A DNA stretch of 4,288 bases from a virus (lineage: Duplodnaviria; Heunggongvirae; Uroviricota; Caudoviricetes), in the IMG/VR virus record IMGVR_UViG_2531839200_000015; one strand, 5' to 3'. Positions 1 to 4,288 of the stretch are shown piece after piece. Numbering within the stretch: position 1 is the first letter of the stretch; each line of letters starts with the position of its first letter. Below the pieces are notes generated by a model, which was not told the origin of the DNA, did no database searches, and saw only the letters and a program-made list of their open reading frames with translations. The position numbers and the translations under genes are program-made.

Positions 1-370
1 TCATCGGGGTAAAACGGTTTATGACGTGGCTTCCGGCGACGCGTTATTTATTTCTGAACTCGGTCCGTTACCGGAAAATGTTACCTGGTTGTCGCCGGAT
101 GGAGAGTGTCAGAAGTGGAACGGCACATCCTGGGCGAAAGATGCAGAAGCAGAAAAACTGTTTCGGGTACGGGAGGCAGAAGAAACAAAAAACAGCCTGA
201 TGCAGGTAGCCAGTGAGCATATTGCGCCACTTCAGGATGCCGTAGATTTGGATATTGCGACGGAGGAAGAGGCATCGTTACTGGCTGCATGGAAGACATA
301 TCGGGTATTGTTGAATCGTGTTGATACAACAGTAGCAGCGGATGTTGAGTGGCCAGTCGCCCCACAATAA
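1..370 (+). CDS. Phage tail fiber assembly protein (Tfa/gpG family), C-terminal part; 5'-partial, gene begins upstream of the window
   Basis: The frame is open from base 2 ([29 protein letters not shown]...) to the TAA at 368-370. The GTG at 26 reported as start by the ORF track is internal. The C-terminal motif [27 protein letters not shown]....WP is the conserved tail-fiber-assembly chaperone domain found in lambdoid Tfa and P2 gpG proteins (recalled, not searched). GC is about 48%. Confidence 0.88.
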
Positions 371-376
371 AAAGAA

Positions 377-406
377 AAAGCCATCGACAGAAATATCGAT
401 GGCTTT
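377..406 (-). terminator. Rho-independent terminator hairpin between convergent genes, strongest for the minus-strand acetyltransferase
   Basis: Perfect 11-bp stem, AAAGCCATCGA (377-387) pairing with TCGATGGCTTT (396-406), around an 8-nt loop CAGAAATA. On the minus strand the hairpin is followed by UUCUUUUUAUU (complement of 366-376), a classic U-tract. On the plus strand it is followed by AUGUACUCUAUUU, a weaker tract. It sits between the tfa stop (368-370) and the acetyltransferase stop (414-416). Confidence 0.7.
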
Positions 407-413
407 ATGTACT

Positions 414-986
414 CTATTTATACAATACAACACCACTCTTTTTAGTTATATATGTGCAGTTTGATGGTATATCTTTATTTATAAAAGACATTGCACCTAT
501 TTTTACATTATCCCCAATTTTACGTGATAATCCAATGATGCAACAATTAGCTCCGATATCAACGTTACTACCAATTTTTACTCTTGAACTAGGCATATCA
601 CCATCTATCTGTCCAATGGTAGTATTCTGTCGTAATACCAGATTTTCACCCGCATCAACAGCAAAATGAACAACAATTCCAGCATGATGGGGAATTGTCA
701 ACCCTTTTCCAATATTTGCGCCCAATCCTATTTCACAACCAAACTTGTTAATTATTTTACTGTTTAACTTTTTGGCTGCTTTCTTATGTAATTTATTACC
801 ATTAATATACATTTCGTTAGCCAACCGCCACCAGAAAAGGAAATTCCGGTTACGCTGCTTTTTCTCTCTTAAAAGCCTCCAGATATCCATACGTTTCCGC
901 CGAATTACTTCATGTTTCCAGAAGTTTTTTAAATTAGTAGAGTTTCCAAATAAAACAAAGTGAATTGCCATTAAGTAAGATAGCAC
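414..986 (-). CDS. Hexapeptide-repeat (left-handed beta-helix) acetyltransferase, serine acetyltransferase CysE/WcaB-like; AT-rich cargo gene
   Basis: The ORF-track frame is 414..1019. The protein carries tandem hexapeptide repeats (GLGANIGKGLTIPHHAGIVV..., IGQIDGDMP, KIGSNVDIGANCCIIG, KIGDNVKIGAMSFI) preceded by a CysE-like helical region (FLFWWRLANEMY...KFGCEIG). I prefer the GTG at 986-984 as start because AAGGAG (998-993, minus sense) lies 6 nt upstream of it. The track start GTG at 1019 and the ATG at 971 have no Shine-Dalgarno and remain alternatives. GC is about 27-30%, far below the flanks. Confidence 0.82.
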   Translation of the reverse strand: MLSYLMAIHFVLFGNSTNLKNFWKHEVIRRKRMDIWRLLREKKQRNRNFLFWWRLANEMYINGNKLHKKAAKKLNSKIINKFGCEIGLGANIGKGLTIPHHAGIVVHFAVDAGENLVLRQNTTIGQIDGDMPSSRVKIGSNVDIGANCCIIGLSRKIGDNVKIGAMSFINKDIPSNCTYITKKSGVVLYK

Positions 987-1037
987 GATAATCTCCTTAA
1001 TTATTATTTCAGACCACACATGTTATAAGGTTAAGAG

Positions 1038-1066
1038 ATTATAAAATCCTGTTATTTGTTATTCAA
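1038..1066 (-). promoter_or_regulatory. Predicted sigma70 promoter for the acetyltransferase gene
   Basis: Minus-strand reading: TTGAAT (-35, complement of 1061-1066), a 17-nt spacer AACAAATAACAGGATTT, then TATAAT (-10, complement of 1038-1043, perfect consensus). An A/T-rich UP-like tract (AAAATTGTTTT) sits upstream. The predicted transcript start near 1031 leaves a leader of about 45 nt before the SD and GTG at 986. Confidence 0.55.
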
Positions 1067-1099
1067 AAACAATTTTCTGAGAAGGACATACAACAGCAA

Positions 1100-1132
1100 G
1101 TCGCCAGTCACCTTCATCAGGAAATTGGCGAC
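1100..1132 (-). other. Inverted repeat (7-bp stem, 19-nt loop) just downstream of the gpU stop; possible weak terminator or recombination scar
   Basis: GTCGCCA (1100-1106) pairs with TGGCGAC (1126-1132). It is flanked by direct copies of GACATAC (1085-1091 and 1130-1136). On the minus strand the stem is followed by the moderately U-rich CUUGCUGUUGUAUGU. Confidence 0.25.
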
Positions 1133-1142
1133 ATACGTTAAA

Positions 1143-1631
1143 TCAGAGCAGCCCCTTAACTGAGCTGGCCGCGCTATTAAGGGATGATGTCACCTTATCT
1201 TTGAAGCCGGACAGCATATCGCTGAACGATGAGGATTGCAGGCGCTCCCGCAAATCCTCATCACAGCGTTCAAGAGTCAGTGAAAATTCTATCTTTTTCG
1301 CCTTACCGTAGCGATCAAACTCGGAGCGGGTCGTATTCGTTCCGGTCAGGACATACATGCCGTAAATCTGCCCGACGCCATCAATCAAAGGCCAAGGACG
1401 TCCTGTATATGCCTGCGTGGTCAACAACGACAGCGACACTTCGCCACCAGTAATCTCAGGATAAAGAACACCAGAAAGAACGATGCGATCATCACCTGCA
1501 CCGATATACTGCCAGCTTGCTGAACGGTTAACGCGTTCATTTTTCACATGTCGCCAGCTTTTGTTTTGCTGTAACTGCTGATGCGGCAACGTGCGCAGCT
1601 CAAAAACAAACATGCCGTAGATCATCATCAT
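1143..1631 (-). CDS. Phage tail protein, P2 gpU family
   Basis: The ORF-track frame is 1143..1637 (MAMMMIYGMFVFELRTLPHQQLQ...WRH...NSRVNRSA..GAGDD...LSGVLYPEITGG...WPLIDG.G.IYGMYV). The N-terminal MMM-hydrophobic pattern and conserved blocks match P2 gpU as I recall it (MMMVLGLFVF...). It sits directly downstream of the tape measure gene, as in P2 T-U order. The start is probably the second ATG (1631-1629), since GAGGAG (1645-1640, overlapping the gpT stop) is 8 nt upstream of it and only 2 nt upstream of the first ATG at 1637. Confidence 0.8.
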   Translation of the reverse strand: MMMIYGMFVFELRTLPHQQLQQNKSWRHVKNERVNRSASWQYIGAGDDRIVLSGVLYPEITGGEVSLSLLTTQAYTGRPWPLIDGVGQIYGMYVLTGTNTTRSEFDRYGKAKKIEFSLTLERCDEDLRERLQSSSFSDMLSGFKDKVTSSLNSAASSVKGLL

Positions 1632-1643
1632 GGCCATGACTCC

Positions 1644-3954
1644 TCAATCTTTATCGTAAAAACTGCCACGCCTGGCACGGGCGCGCCGTTCCATTTCTGC
1701 CCTGACCATTTCGCCGACCAGTTTCGCCAGTTCGCGGGGATTCTGCGTAACAACGTTATGCAGATGAACATGAATTTCACCGCCAAATCCGGAGGCAACA
1801 GGCTCCCGGTTACGGGAAGTTGCAGGAACTGATGCCACTGGCGATCGTATGGCCTCCACCACCGGGCGGGAGCTGGCCGCAACAACAGGGACCAGCGCCG
1901 GAGGCAGCGGAGCCGGGACCACGGGTGTGATATTAATTGCGGGGGCAGGCTTACTGACCTGCGCAATCTTCCGCTCCTGCCACTCCCCACGAACAGCAAG
2001 TGCGCGGGGCAGGTTCTTAAAGACAATATCGCCGGGGCCAATGCGTTTTTTTGTCTCATCAACCAGCTTACCTGTGTTATCAGCAATTTTGCTGAGTCTG
2101 CGTAGCGTGCCGGTATTGCTGTCTGTGAGAGGTTTGTTGTCTTTGGGTTTATCATCTCCGGTGCCATTGCTATTTCCCGCAGACTTCGGCGGATTGATTT
2201 TCGCAATGTCTCCCTGAAACAGAGCAACCTTGTCCTGAAGAATGGCCGCACGTTGTGCGTCTTCGATTTTCTTGCGCGCCCTTTCCGCTTCATCCGGAAG
2301 CACACCGAGTTTTTCAAGTATCCACGCCAGCGTATCCAGCAACATTTTTGCAGGCGTCAGAACAAGCTGTAACGCACCACCAAGAACGTTACCGAATACC
2401 TCGCCAGCACTGGTACATTTATCCAGCGTTTCCTTGCTGGACTCCATCGGTGACAGCAGCGATTTAAACCAGTTAAACACCTGGCTGATCCCGCTTCCGA
2501 TTACGTCAAAAACAGGGCCAAACCGTTCAAAGGTGTCGCGCAACGGGGTCAGCCTTTCCATAATCCCGCTGAACACCCCGGCAAAGAAAGCCCTGATAGG
2601 ATCCCAGTATTTCCAGATAAGAACGGCAGCTCCGGCAAGCGCAGCCACGATAAGACCAACCGGACTGAACAACGCCCCGATAACGCCTCCCAGTAAAGAA
2701 ACGGAACCCGTCACCATTCCCCATAGCGCAGGTAACACCCTGACGACATTCATTGACCGGGTAAGAATGTCAAAACCAAGACGCAGGGTGGCCAGCTTCC
2801 CGTAAAGCACCCCAATAACCAGCGACAACGAGCCAATCGTTGCAGTCATTGCCAGCAACGCACCGCCTGCTATCAGTAGCTGGCGCGTCAGTACCGGATG
2901 GGCCTGCGCCAGCGAGGTGATTTTTTCAAGCACCCGCGTGAGCCACTGCGTGACAGAACGCAGCGGACCGTCAACCAGATCACTGATGCGAATACGAAGA
3001 CCTTCCCATGCGCTGTCGAGATTTTTCAGGTCCCCATCAAGATTATCAGCCATTACTTTTGCGACGCGATCGGCCTCTCCCCTTGCCCCCTGCAATTCTC
3101 TGGTCAGTTTTTGCAGCTCTCCTGAACCAGCCGCCGCAACAAGCGTCTGCAAACCAACGAACGCCTCTTCTCCGGCGATGTCCTTGAAGAAGGAGACCTG
3201 GTCCACCTGTCCGTATTTTTGTGTCGCCTTATAGAGATCAAGCAGCACATCCTCCATCGGGCGCATTTTGCCTCTGGCGTCAGCAACTGACACCCCCAGC
3301 TCTTTCAGTGCATCAGCCGCAGCTTTTGGCGGTGATGCAAGGCGGGACAGACTTGCGCGCATGGCCGTGCCAGCATCGCTTCCGCGAAGACCATTATTGG
3401 CAAGCATCCCGGCCATGGCCGCCGCTTCTTCAAGACTGATACCAAGTTTTGCGGCAACCGGACCGGTATACTTCATGGTTTCGCCCAGCGCGCGTAAATC
3501 AGTATTGGTCCGGGTAAATGCTGCTGTCAGCGTATCGCCCACCCGGTCCATTTGATCGGCTGTCAGGTTGAACTGTGTGAGGATATTGGAGCCTATATCA
3601 GCCGTCTCGCCGAGTTCGACGCCACCTGCCAGCGCCATATTAAGAACACCGGGCAATGCGGCCTGAATGGCCTGCGGAGTAAAACCAGCCATTGCCAGAA
3701 AGCTCTGCCCACTGGCGGCATCACTCGCAGTAAACTGTGTTTCAGCAAGTTTTAACGCCTGCTCACGCAGCGCCTTAAACTGCGGGCTGTTTTTGTCGAT
3801 TCGCGTCAGTGCCTGAACGCGGGACATCTCTTTGCCGAACCCGATCGCAGGCTGCAAAAAACGCCCGGCAGCATAGCCGCCCGCCGCTGCCGCACCAATT
3901 GCCAGCGCACCACCTGTTTTCAGTTTTCCCGCGGTTTCCTGCGCGTGCGAATAC
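1644..3954 (-). CDS. Phage tail tape measure protein (P2 gpT-like, TP901-type domain), 5' end interrupted by IS insertion; probably a pseudogene or gene fragment
   Basis: A 737-codon ORF (track 1644..3857, with TTG as first possible start) ends in TGA at 1646-1644. It has an N-proximal tape-measure domain (...LGISLEEAAAMAGMLANNGLRGSDAGTAMRASLSRL...), a long central hydrophobic Gly/Ala/Leu-rich segment and a Pro/Val/Ala-rich C-terminal region, all typical of myovirus tape measure proteins. My hand translation shows the frame stays open upstream of 3857, with no ATG/GTG/TTG, through the IS boundary at 3954/3955 and about 30 codons into the IS until a TGA at 4046-4044. So the native start is missing from this side of the IS. 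Confidence 0.88.
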
Positions 3955-4288
3955 TGAACCGCCCCGGAAATCCTGGAGACTAAACTCCCTGAGAAAGAGG
4001 TAAACAGGATGACTAAAAATACTCGTTTTTCCCCCGAGGTCCGTCAACGGGCAGTTCGTATGGTTCTGGAAAGTCAGGATGAATATGACTCACAGTGGGC
4101 GGCAATTTGTTCCATTGCCCCAAAGATTGGCTGTACGCCGGAGACTCTGCGTGTCTGGGTTCGCCAGCATGAGCGGGATACCGGGGGCGGTGATGGTGGG
4201 CTCACCAGCGCTGAACGTCAGCGTCTGAAAGAGCTGGAACGTGAAAATCGTGAACTGCGCCGCAGTAACGATATCCTTCGCCAGGCTT
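3955..4288 (+). mobile_element. IS3-family insertion sequence, left end (IS629/IS1203/IS3411-like); continues beyond the window
   Basis: The terminal sequence TGAACCGCCCCGGAAATCCTGGAGACTAAACTCCCTGAGAAAGAGGTAAACAGG starts at 3955 with the TG dinucleotide typical of IS3-family inverted repeats. It is followed by the OrfA ATG at 4008 with an AAGAGG Shine-Dalgarno (3995-4000). The left-end sequence matches IS629 as I recall it; this was not verified by search. Confidence 0.85.
4008..4288 (+). CDS. IS3-family transposase OrfA (helix-turn-helix and leucine-zipper N-terminal protein), 3'-partial
   Basis: The ATG at 4008 opens [93 protein letters not shown], which runs to the window edge without a stop. 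This is the characteristic IS3-family OrfA: an HTH region followed by a heptad Leu/Arg/Glu-rich zipper. It is absent from the ORF track because it is not closed within the window. Confidence 0.9.

Follow-up and report, generated by a model that had tools for sequence, protein, structure and literature searches.

A putative surface-modifying acetyltransferase encoded among the tail genes of a defective P2-like prophage of Escherichia coli O157:H7

The 4,288-nucleotide stretch of DNA analysed here (the window) matches a P2-like prophage of E. coli O157:H7 at 100% identity and contains a gene for a 190-amino-acid protein that, on the basis of its modelled structure, belongs to the left-handed beta-helix (LbH, hexapeptide) acyltransferase superfamily. 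The reading that we favor, although tentatively, is that this protein is a lysogenic-conversion O-acetyltransferase acting on the lipopolysaccharide (LPS) core, the receptor of P1 and P2. The comparison of homolog neighborhoods proposed in the original prediction, which had been made from the letters of the DNA and its open reading frames, showed that relatives adjoin tail-fibre genes in most mobile lineages and occur in a waa operon or with LPS-core-type partners.

The original prediction had described a single AT-rich gene lying between phage tail genes, and both flanking genes were identified as such by profile searches (Table 1). One ORF lies within 414-1066, as had been stated; it is on the minus strand, and its Shine-Dalgarno sequence was found as read. 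The GC content of this block, given as 27–30%, was underestimated: we measured 32.9%, with individual 60-nt lines spanning 22–43%. The flanks, predicted at approximately 48–55%, measured 48.4% (1-413) and 54.2% (1067-4288). The composition of the acetyltransferase coding sequence (GC 34.0%, GC3 28.8%) is distinct from that of the flanking phage genes (GC 50–56%, GC3 46–56%). A longer ORF starting at GTG 1019 was rejected because the homologs and the PGAP annotation start at 986 and the Shine-Dalgarno precedes 986, and an upstream ORF of ∼89 codons was rejected as the conserved partner of a two-gene system because it is lineage-specific, being seen in some relatives. Rfam identified no sRNA in the intergenic region upstream of the gene. 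Tandem Repeats Finder (minimum score 30) found no tandem repeats in 350-1160, and phase variation of the kind known for neuO was rejected on this ground.

Table 1. Features identified in the window.
Feature	Position	Strand	Evidence and remarks
tfa, tail-fibre assembly (chaperone) gene, 3' two-thirds	1..370	+	Caudo_TAP 5e-38; "tail fiber assembly protein" in NZ_AP018488.1
Intrinsic terminator of acetyltransferase gene	367..406	-	Hairpin 377-406 plus T-run, in 43-nt gap between convergent genes
Acetyltransferase CDS	414..986	-	GTG start 986..984, TAA stop 416..414, 190 aa; PGAP CDS WP_000954203.1
Shine-Dalgarno AAGGAG	993..998	-	6 nt before GTG start; direct sequence reading; invariant in 6 aligned alleles
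Predicted sigma-70 promoter	1038..1066	-	TTGAAT (1066..1061), 17-nt spacer, TATAAT (1043..1038); consensus scan, 10/12 matches
gpU-like tail protein gene, directly upstream of acetyltransferase gene	1143..1637	-	Phage_P2_GpU 1.5e-38
Tape-measure gene, 5' end removed by IS element	1644..3954	-	PhageMin_Tail 8.5e-55, TIGR01760 6e-84; annotated N-terminally truncated pseudogene
IS1203/IS629 (IS3 family), left end	3955..4288	+	orfA from 4009; HTH_Tnp_1 9.8e-13, IS3-family transposase; annotated IS1203

The O157:H7 prophage is defective, its tape-measure gene being cut by the IS element. We take the IS629 boundary to be at 3955 from the inverted repeat of the element, in agreement with the annotated end of the pseudogene. 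The order T-U-acetyltransferase is also found in an intact O104:H4 prophage, and the FI-U block in the O157/O104 lineage is inverted with respect to the P2 map, so that the acetyltransferase gene is located between tfa and gpU. Despite the loss of tail genes from the prophage, the acetyltransferase gene is intact and 100% conserved in O157. Because of this conservation, and because dN/dS values of 0.10–0.19 indicate purifying selection, sequence comparison argues that the gene is functional.

The gene's own terminator, a further element of the original prediction, proved to be strong: the hairpin from 406 to 377 has a 13-bp stem followed by a TTCTTTTT tail, with a dG of −20.9 kcal/mol (z = −6.2), and 0 of 200 shuffled sequences were equally stable. 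The outcome for the predicted sigma-70 promoter was mixed. Its hexamers and 17-nt spacer are present, but sigma-70-like matches (4 observed versus 3.4 expected in shuffled sequence) do not exceed chance, so the promoter is not significant alone, and it is degraded in two other alleles (L153 and L162), homology to which stops at window positions 1068-1070, just beyond the −35 hexamer. The promoter, leader, and Shine-Dalgarno are near-perfectly kept in an allele whose coding sequence shares only ∼75% DNA identity, and the promoter is identical in the O104 allele and in alleles of 71% identity. In the lysogen, this sigma-70 promoter probably drives transcription of the gene; transcripts of the late tail operon might also extend into it, as gpU is located upstream in the same orientation. 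The literature that we searched contained no statement on a transcript or on proteome detection of the gene. As for the moron layout that had been proposed, a single AT-rich unit with its own terminator does lie between tail genes, but a probe joining the end of tfa to the end of gpU revealed no empty site (0 places with ≥80% coverage in 5,426 E. coli genomes). In other phages the gene occupies different slots, and the P2 slot carries other cargo. Stand-alone cargo ("moron") of a defective P2-like prophage is the best explanation for the gene.

Residues 1-82 of the protein form a basic N-domain of five helices and residues 83-190 a left-handed beta-helix, bearing out the CysE-like helical N-terminus and hexapeptide fold that had been predicted. 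AF2 modelled it with a pLDDT of 96.3 in a run with 107 sequences, which was used in place of a 38-sequence run that rendered the beta-helix poorly (pLDDT ∼50). All top Foldseek matches to the model were CysE structures (TM ∼0.72 over ∼200 aligned columns, probability 1.00), and the best structural neighbors are all of the serine acetyltransferase (SAT) type with a helical N-domain, which MAT, GAT, and XAT enzymes lack. Profile searches gave the similarity to hexapeptide acyltransferases that the original prediction had called for, with an E-value of 5.6e-24 against solved SATs and other matches to phrog_2154 (2.9e-87) and Pfam Hexapep, the last just under its gathering cut-off (24.1 versus 27). 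Residues E85 and H100 align to the catalytic His-Asp dyad of SATs (His158/Asp143 in the E. coli enzyme and His162/Asp147 in that of N. gonorrhoeae, NgSAT; residue roles from PMC8786284), the acid (Asp or Glu) being present in 38 of 38 family members and the histidine in 37. The family also has a signature of its own, FWWRLA / RQNTTIG. Unlike the acidic CysE, the window protein has a very basic N-domain (+16, pI 11.4), which would suit an anionic membrane or a lipid A-core surface.

The acetyltransferase gene was found in 530 of 5,426 complete E. coli genomes (∼10%); most O157:H7 isolates and many strains of O26, O103, O111, and O104:H4 appear to be among the carriers. Near-identical alleles span many O serogroups with unrelated O-units (O157, O26, O103, O104, O111, and O22). 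Members of the family are carried by prophages, phage-plasmids, and plasmids; from a scan of species-representative genomes only relatives L006-L018 were used, as the matches drifted to generic LbH enzymes. The O157 P2-like prophage shares the C-terminal third of its fibre (86%), tfa, and the acetyltransferase coding sequence with the P1-like JL22 and related phage-plasmids; in JL22 the latter two are contiguous, with 91.6% nucleotide identity. The homology between the P2-like and P1-like blocks ends at the acetyltransferase start codon. These alignments indicate that fibre tip, tfa, and acetyltransferase are transferred between P2-like and P1-like phages as a single block. More broadly, in ∼13 of 15 lineages of mobile elements, which differ in phage architecture, the gene is a neighbor of tfa or fibre genes, and in three of the relatives (L164, L166, and L168) its exact position is between the G (tfa) gene and the gene for the FI sheath, in antisense orientation to the late genes. 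One clade occupies the hok/gef end of a prophage, another is plasmid-borne, and seven relatives on chromosomes stand as isolated genes. A Wadjet JetD gene and an IS21 element are found close to one relative. Tail-fibre adjacency alone could be hitch-hiking, because the post-tail-fibre position in P2 is a general cargo and defence hotspot.

Several relatives are found among genes for LPS-core synthesis. In Leminorella, a relative that is 48% identical, N-domain included, lies beside waaL in the LPS-core operon, in the order waaG-waaP-GT4-GT8-waaY-waaZ-acetyltransferase. Xenorhabdus prophages pair the acetyltransferase with a GT25 (123 bits), a Morganella prophage pairs it with a GT9, and in two viral contigs the gene adjoins a YibB/HtrL equivalog; htrL adjoins the waa cluster in K-12. 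A Pseudomonas relative lies between three LPS kinases and wbp-like genes. LPS genes were present in only ∼5–6 of ∼20 sampled contexts, and the association is that of the relatives, the gene in the window being alone in its prophage. We know of no report of an O-acetyl group in the core of E. coli R3 or O157, although such groups can be lost during standard preparation of the core. P1, P2, and 186 require the LPS core, including waaJ and waaO (PMC7553319). [quoted passage not shown]

The acetylation of a surface receptor, as originally proposed, is strengthened by the co-transfer with fibre tip and tfa and by the waa contexts, but the capsule and O-antigen targets that had been put forward fit poorly because the gene is present across many O serogroups; this distribution is more easily reconciled with a conserved target, for example the LPS core. 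Our view of how the gene is expressed in a lysogen, what it acetylates, and what results from this is an inference. The protein would be a very basic, cytoplasmic, acetyl-CoA-dependent acetyltransferase that keeps the SAT fold and dyad but has a different acceptor pocket. It would be expressed in the lysogen from its own promoter, possibly also by late-operon read-through, with transcription ending at the strong terminator. Its acceptor would be an LPS-core sugar or, with lower probability, some other lipid-linked glycan of the envelope, and O-acetylation would thereby change the receptor for the very tail fibre with which the gene travels. Such a change could block superinfection by the same phage and by related LPS-core-binding phages, and could reduce the number of progeny lost on cell debris.

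Other functions must be weighed against this one. The RefSeq name, "serine O-acetyltransferase", would make the gene an auxiliary metabolic gene that raises cysteine synthesis, and SAT structures are indeed the best sequence and fold matches of the protein, which also keeps the catalytic dyad. However, the name is unsupported at the residue level and by family scores, which are far below the cut-offs of the CysE, WcaB, and EpsC models (36–76 bits overall versus 150–397): 62.3 versus 210.65 bits for TIGR01172 and 36.4 versus 397 for NF008349 (both CysE), and 54.1 and 55.2 versus 194.65 and 196 for TIGR04016 and NF007564 (both WcaB). The best NCBIfam match is the exopolysaccharide enzyme EpsC. 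In pairwise comparison WcaB (35% over 109 aa, E 6e-16) is closer than CysE (29%, E 1e-09). No SATase_N match was obtained in Pfam at E ≤0.01, the N-domain having 82 aa versus ∼140 for SATase_N. At 190 aa versus 273 for CysE, the protein ends ∼10 residues past the last coil and lacks the C-terminal tail, which in CysE binds CysK, and its strongly basic charge is unlike that of CysE. Finally, of the residues that bind L-serine in NgSAT (Asp161, Glu170, Arg196, and His197, with Asp96 in the N-domain; PMC8786284), all four that can be aligned are replaced (P99, F108, S134, and R135) in columns that are not conserved among the 38 family members, and Asp96 cannot be aligned. True serine acetyltransferase activity is thus unlikely, as had been suspected of a role in cysteine or sulfur metabolism, and we regard an auxiliary metabolic gene of this kind as extremely improbable. 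A detoxifying or small-molecule acetyltransferase of the maltose, galactoside, Vat, or XAT type, carried as fitness cargo, is very unlikely in our judgment. The profile does match galactoside and maltose O-acetyltransferases (E ∼1e-12 to 1e-13), and there are weak NCBIfam matches to LacA, Maa, and Vat, but the former cover generic C-terminal coils only, the top structural neighbors are all SAT-type with the helical N-domain missing from MAT, GAT, and XAT, and the genomic contexts contain no pointer to sugar or antibiotic metabolism.

A closer competitor, which we consider a minor but real possibility, retains the mechanism and changes the acceptor to O-antigen, enterobacterial common antigen, colanic acid, or capsule, where the original prediction had placed its emphasis. 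WcaB, the closest characterized pairwise relative, acetylates the colanic-acid repeat unit, the match to EpsC again points to exopolysaccharide, the genes downstream of the Pseudomonas relative resemble O-antigen sugar-nucleotide genes, and with NeuO there is already a prophage LbH enzyme whose substrate is capsule (PMC3046976). Against these stand the near-identical alleles in six serogroups with unrelated O-units, partners in other prophages that are core-type (GT9, GT25, YibB) rather than Wzx, Wzy, or O-unit genes, and the waa operon as the clearest chromosomal context of the relatives. Enterobacterial common antigen and colanic acid are conserved and are possible acceptors. We judge it unlikely that the gene instead serves anti-phage defence or counter-defence by acetylating a non-glycan target (a phage protein, nucleotide, or metabolite) inside the cell. 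The locus matches the Z/fun hotspot, which yielded three new defence systems in the work of Vassallo et al. and is named among the P2 defence sites in a 2026 NAR study, the family occurs across prophages, phage-plasmids, and plasmids, and there is the relative near JetD and IS21. But PADLOC-DB v2 returned 0 defence families at E ≤1, leading us to reject a described defence system as the identity of the gene, and no described system with an LbH acetyltransferase was found in the papers searched. It is LPS enzymes that recur as partners of the gene, rather than nucleases or sensors, and membership of a chromosomal relative in a waa operon is hard to square with a dedicated immune function.

Our search of the literature on P2-like acetyltransferases, morons, superinfection exclusion, defence, and waa acetyltransferases yielded no paper on the gene, and no acetyltransferase is mentioned in Rousset 2022, Vassallo 2022, or the text of the 2026 NAR P2/P4 paper. 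It is possible, although doubtful, that this family is the first identified class of LPS-core O-acetyltransferases, with chromosomal members in waa operons (Leminorella, possibly Pseudomonas) and phage members in a portable three-part module (fibre tip, chaperone, and an enzyme that masks the receptor) exchanged among P2-like, P1-like, and other myovirus prophages, so that host range and superinfection exclusion are co-inherited. The union of receptor-binding tip, chaperone, and putative receptor-modifying enzyme in a single exchangeable unit is an example of how phages might inherit attack and exclusion together. If the LPS core is acetylated, sensitivity to LPS-core-binding phages would change, which is relevant to phage therapy and typing of STEC, core-directed antibody or innate recognition could be altered, and the family would supply candidates for the enzymes that O-acetylate the LPS cores of Pseudomonas (PMC8005017). 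The unsupported name "serine O-acetyltransferase" is propagated in databases.

Compared with known enzymes, CysE (TIGR01172; PDB 1T3D and 6WYE) is the best structural match and has the same His-acid dyad, but the window protein lacks its serine-binding residues, full N-domain, and C-terminal tail, and is basic rather than acidic. WcaB resembles the window protein in being a short LbH enzyme of SAT-like type whose chain stops directly behind the beta-helix, and both have an HH-G-x-V motif and an acidic dyad partner. [quoted passage not shown] The window protein differs in having ∼30 more N-terminal residues and the family signature, and its gene family is found in phages and waa contexts whereas WcaB is encoded in the wca operon. 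Z/fun of P2 and the other cargo genes in the hotspot behind the tail-fibre genes share the genomic slot of the acetyltransferase relatives, but the proteins are unrelated.

The gene for NeuO adjoins the receptor-recognising tail gene of its prophage, CUS-3 of E. coli K1. NeuO is likewise a prophage-borne, cytoplasmic, trimeric LbH O-acetyltransferase that alters the surface glycan used by its phage (PMC3046976). The two have no close sequence relationship, NeuO not being among the 60 best PDB profile matches of the window protein, and the latter differs in its SAT-type helical N-domain, its lack of a phase-variation repeat tract, and its occurrence in many serotypes; its target is probably the LPS core, whereas that of NeuO is capsule (polysialic acid). 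The phage acetyltransferases of the Oac, GtrC, and OafA type are integral-membrane acyltransferase-3 proteins acting on O-antigen, whereas the window protein is a soluble LbH enzyme without such a Pfam match. They nonetheless share the role proposed here, namely lysogenic conversion by O-acetylation of LPS against superinfection, as exemplified by gtrC of BTP1 (PMC7067206).

The whole window is matched at 100% identity by a chromosomal P2-like prophage of E. coli O157:H7 (e.g., NZ_AP018488.1), at a site adjoining the tRNA-Leu/Cys/Gly-pgsA-uvrC region. This prophage is defective: it lacks the sheath, tube, and gpE genes and so is unable to make tails, its holin gene is a pseudogene, and an IS30 fragment follows. 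The acetyltransferase gene (190 aa, WP_000954203.1) is intact and 100% conserved in O157 although the prophage is tail-defective. In an intact O104:H4 relative, H and G (tfa, the tail-fiber assembly chaperone gene) lie on one strand and acetyltransferase-U-T-E-FII-FI on the other. The FI-U block is inverted relative to the P2 gene order, and its presence in an intact prophage indicates that the inversion is native to the lineage rather than damage. Just to the left of the window (O157 prophage locus, 18502-19404), the late operon has a gene between H and tfa that encodes a 300-aa Macro-domain protein (PF01661, 8e-19); this gene is missing from the O104:H4 and phage JL22 versions of the fiber/tfa/acetyltransferase cassette, and as a late-expressed phage Macro domain it could be a counter-defense gene. 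An Rfam IS009 match (RF02111; 191 bits, gathering 117) at window 135-333 (+) falls wholly within tfa coding sequence, and the family here probably models tfa remnants of cryptic prophages, not an independent small RNA.

Features of the window surrounding the acetyltransferase gene
Feature	Position	Strand	Basis
tfa, 3' two-thirds	ends at 370	+	Caudo_TAP 5e-38
Candidate terminator: 13-bp hairpin, then TTCTTTTT	406..377	-	dG -20.9 kcal/mol, z -6.2
Acetyltransferase gene	986->414	-	GTG start at 986 (PGAP)
Shine-Dalgarno AAGGAG	6 nt upstream of GTG 986	-	
Predicted sigma-70-like promoter TTGAAT-17-TATAAT	1066..1038	-	
gpU-like tail gene	1637->1143	-	Phage_P2_GpU 1.5e-38
Tape-measure gene, 5' end removed by IS1203/IS629	~3954 down to 1644	-	profile matches and annotation
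IS1203/IS629 element, inserted in tape-measure gene	3955-4288		fills window end

The AT-rich block of the original prediction is present at 414-1066 (32.9% GC, flanks 48.4% and 54.2%), but the 27-30% GC ascribed to it was a few points too low; its 60-nt lines range from 22 to 43%, and the CDS has 34.0% GC, with 28.8% at third codon positions as compared to 46-56% in neighboring genes. Homologs share the start residue encoded by GTG 986, where the P1-like allele uses ATG, and a dN/dS of 0.10-0.19 among five alleles points to a real gene under selection. A good Shine-Dalgarno and a dedicated terminator had been claimed and both were found, the hairpin being convincing as the terminator of this minus-strand gene. 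The near-consensus sigma-70 promoter exists as a sequence, but such matches are no commoner than AT-rich shuffles would give by chance (4 against 3.4), and both hexamers are degraded in two other alleles (L153 and L162), making this promoter lineage-specific. Independent support for it comes from the L086/L089 allele, in which promoter, leader, and Shine-Dalgarno are nearly identical despite a CDS only ~75% identical in DNA; over ~110 nt (window 987-1100, L086/L089 3856-4000) this identity is ~97%, which could mean either that the regulatory region is constrained or that it was exchanged by recent recombination. Because no convincing terminator was found between gpU and the acetyltransferase gene on their shared strand, late-operon read-through is also possible. 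JL22 has a different upstream region (L004 5513-6000; ~490 nt, very AT-rich) with its own TTGACA-18-TAAAAT match, and in P1-like phages the gene lies between two alternative tfa genes beside cin, possibly within the invertible segment.

The predicted CysE-like helical N-terminus and hexapeptide-repeat fold were borne out by an AlphaFold2 model (107-sequence alignment, pLDDT 96.3) with five helices (residues 2-82) and a left-handed beta-helix (LbH) ending ~10 residues before the C-terminus, for which the best 50 Foldseek matches in the PDB were CysE structures throughout (TM ~0.72, 19-26% identity). At the profile level the LbH similarity held (E 5.6e-24 to solved serine acetyltransferases, starting only at the last N-domain helix), but family assignment did not: Pfam Hexapep scored just under threshold (24.1, gathering 27), SATase_N gave no match in a Pfam search, and the best NCBIfam models were all under cut-off (EpsC 76 bits/150, CysE 62/210.65, WcaB 54-55/~195). 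The protein belongs to a function-unknown PHROGs group (phrog_2154, 2.9e-87) and matched no PADLOC defense-protein model; FWWRLA (N-domain) and RQNTTIG (helix) are invariant in its family. The N. gonorrhoeae serine acetyltransferase uses His162/Asp147 as its catalytic dyad and binds serine through Asp96, Asp161, Glu170, Arg196, and His197 (PMC8786284; E. coli numbering in PMC9547175). The dyad is kept in the family (H100 is His in 37 of 38 members, E85 Asp or Glu in all 38), but the four alignable serine-binding positions (P99, F108, S134, and R135 here) vary freely. The window protein carries a strong positive charge (net +19; +16 and pI 11.4 for the N-domain), in contrast to the acidic CysE. 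Pairwise alignment gave 35% identity over 109 aa with WcaB (E 6e-16) and 29% over 115 aa with CysE (E 1e-09), making WcaB the nearer of the two. On this comparative evidence (absent serine-binding residues, a sub-cut-off CysE score, no SATase_N, no C-terminal tail, basic charge), it is unlikely to be a true serine acetyltransferase. A literature search returned nothing on the gene beyond its automatic label, save that the Citrobacter phiNP paper lists it as a 'fitness' gene.

Of 5,426 complete E. coli genomes, 530 carry the gene, the majority at identities of at least 95% (O157:H7, O26, O103, O111, O104:H4, O22:H8, and others), with 66 plasmid places. In P1-like phage-plasmids (pEC5502-2; JL22, where it is named sacF) it lies inside the tail-fiber region between U and tfa. 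The O157 prophage and JL22 share 86% DNA identity in the C-terminal third of the fiber gene and 91.6% across tfa and the entire acetyltransferase CDS, the homology stopping exactly at the start codon; with L153 and L162, it stops just outside the -35 hexamer. Judged from sequence comparison, the gene travels with the tail-fiber tip and tfa. Among the mobile-element lineages sampled, it is convergent with tfa or the fiber gene in the O157/O104 type, P1-like phages, L162, the 71%-identical allele, L164/166/168/180, L171, L181-183, Citrobacter phiNP, and a Buttiauxella prophage; downstream of both on the same strand in L175-179; and one gene from either in L169/170, Xenorhabdus, and Morganella. 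Two clades are not fiber-linked, one at the hok/gef end of a P2-like prophage and one on IS-rich plasmids. With a probe pairing window 230-413 (tfa end) and 1143-1320 (gpU end), either half was present in 2,405 of the 5,426 genomes and the halves were never within ~680 nt of each other, so a convergent tfa/gpU junction without an insert of about this size was not seen.

At the 71%-allele loci, a tfa 3' remnant is attached to the gene and a second, complete tfa lies alongside. In L086-L088 (4617-5605) the remnant is 87 aa and an additional class-I methyltransferase cargo gene precedes the complete tfa; this arrangement resembles the trace left by a cassette exchange through recombination within tfa. 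A 50%-identity relative adjoins psiA, IpaB/EvcA-family, and EspF-fragment genes on IS-rich ~113-kb plasmids (L095-L098), so plasmids of pathogenic E. coli carry the family as well.

Several relatives neighbor LPS-core genes. A Leminorella grimontii relative (48% identical across 164 residues that take in the N-domain motif; GC 28-33%, low like outer-core genes) is last in a canonical core operon of GT4 (WaaG-like), WaaP-family kinase, GT4, GT8, WaaY (3e-102), and WaaZ (402 bits, cut-off 200) genes, convergent with waaL in the slot held by waaU in K-12. Xenorhabdus prophages carry an AT-rich pair of acetyltransferase and GT25 'LPS biosynthesis' glycosyltransferase (123 bits), and in a Morganella prophage its partner is a divergent gene of the GT9 heptosyltransferase family (32.6 bits, cut-off 22). 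Each pair lies directly against a gene located after those for the baseplate wedge and J; this gene had no Pfam match and is taken by position to be a tail fiber. In viral contigs L169 and L170 the gene and a YibB/HtrL equivalog (360 bits, cut-off 342) converge, and htrL adjoins rfaD-waaF-waaC-waaL in K-12. One Pseudomonas relative has three Kdo/WaaP-family LPS kinase genes on one side and WbpA/B/E-like genes on the other, and one in Intestinirhabdus neighbors ugd and arn genes; seven other chromosomal relatives are isolated among uninformative neighbors.

Phages P1, P2, and 186 depend on the LPS core, including the outer-core genes waaJ and waaO (PMC7553319). We tentatively favor, as the most likely function, O-acetylation of an LPS-core sugar, which would mask the receptor of the fiber inherited with the gene and thereby provide superinfection exclusion and reduce progeny loss on debris. 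A conserved target would explain near-identical alleles across unrelated O serogroups, a distribution that speaks against an enzyme specific for O-antigen, whereas the acceptor could still be ECA or colanic acid. A non-glycan defense role is possible but less likely; in L164, L166, and L168 the gene is placed between G and the sheath gene, exactly where Z/fun classically lies in P2, a recognized accessory and defense hotspot (Vassallo et al.; NAR 2026). With core acetylation as the favored reading, the lysogenic conversion originally proposed is plausible, if unproven, and better focused.

The gene may be placed, with a plausible but putative function, as an uncharacterized prophage member of the lysogenic-conversion acetyltransferases, to which it adds a fiber-tip/chaperone/enzyme cassette and recurring LPS-core associations. 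The Pseudomonas literature describes core O-acetyltransferases as still unidentified (PMC8005017), and this family offers a specific candidate for that activity. WcaB and CysE are the closest sequence class, although the protein is under curated cut-offs for both and differs from CysE at substrate residues as well. The role proposed here is shared with the Oac/GtrC-type phage O-antigen acetyltransferases, which are membrane proteins unrelated to this one. In its logic, the nearest parallel is NeuO of prophage CUS-3, an LbH O-acetyltransferase that is encoded beside the tail gene and modifies the receptor of the phage; unlike in NeuO, a search for phase-variation repeats found none in the window gene, and by family profile against the PDB the two proteins are not closely related.
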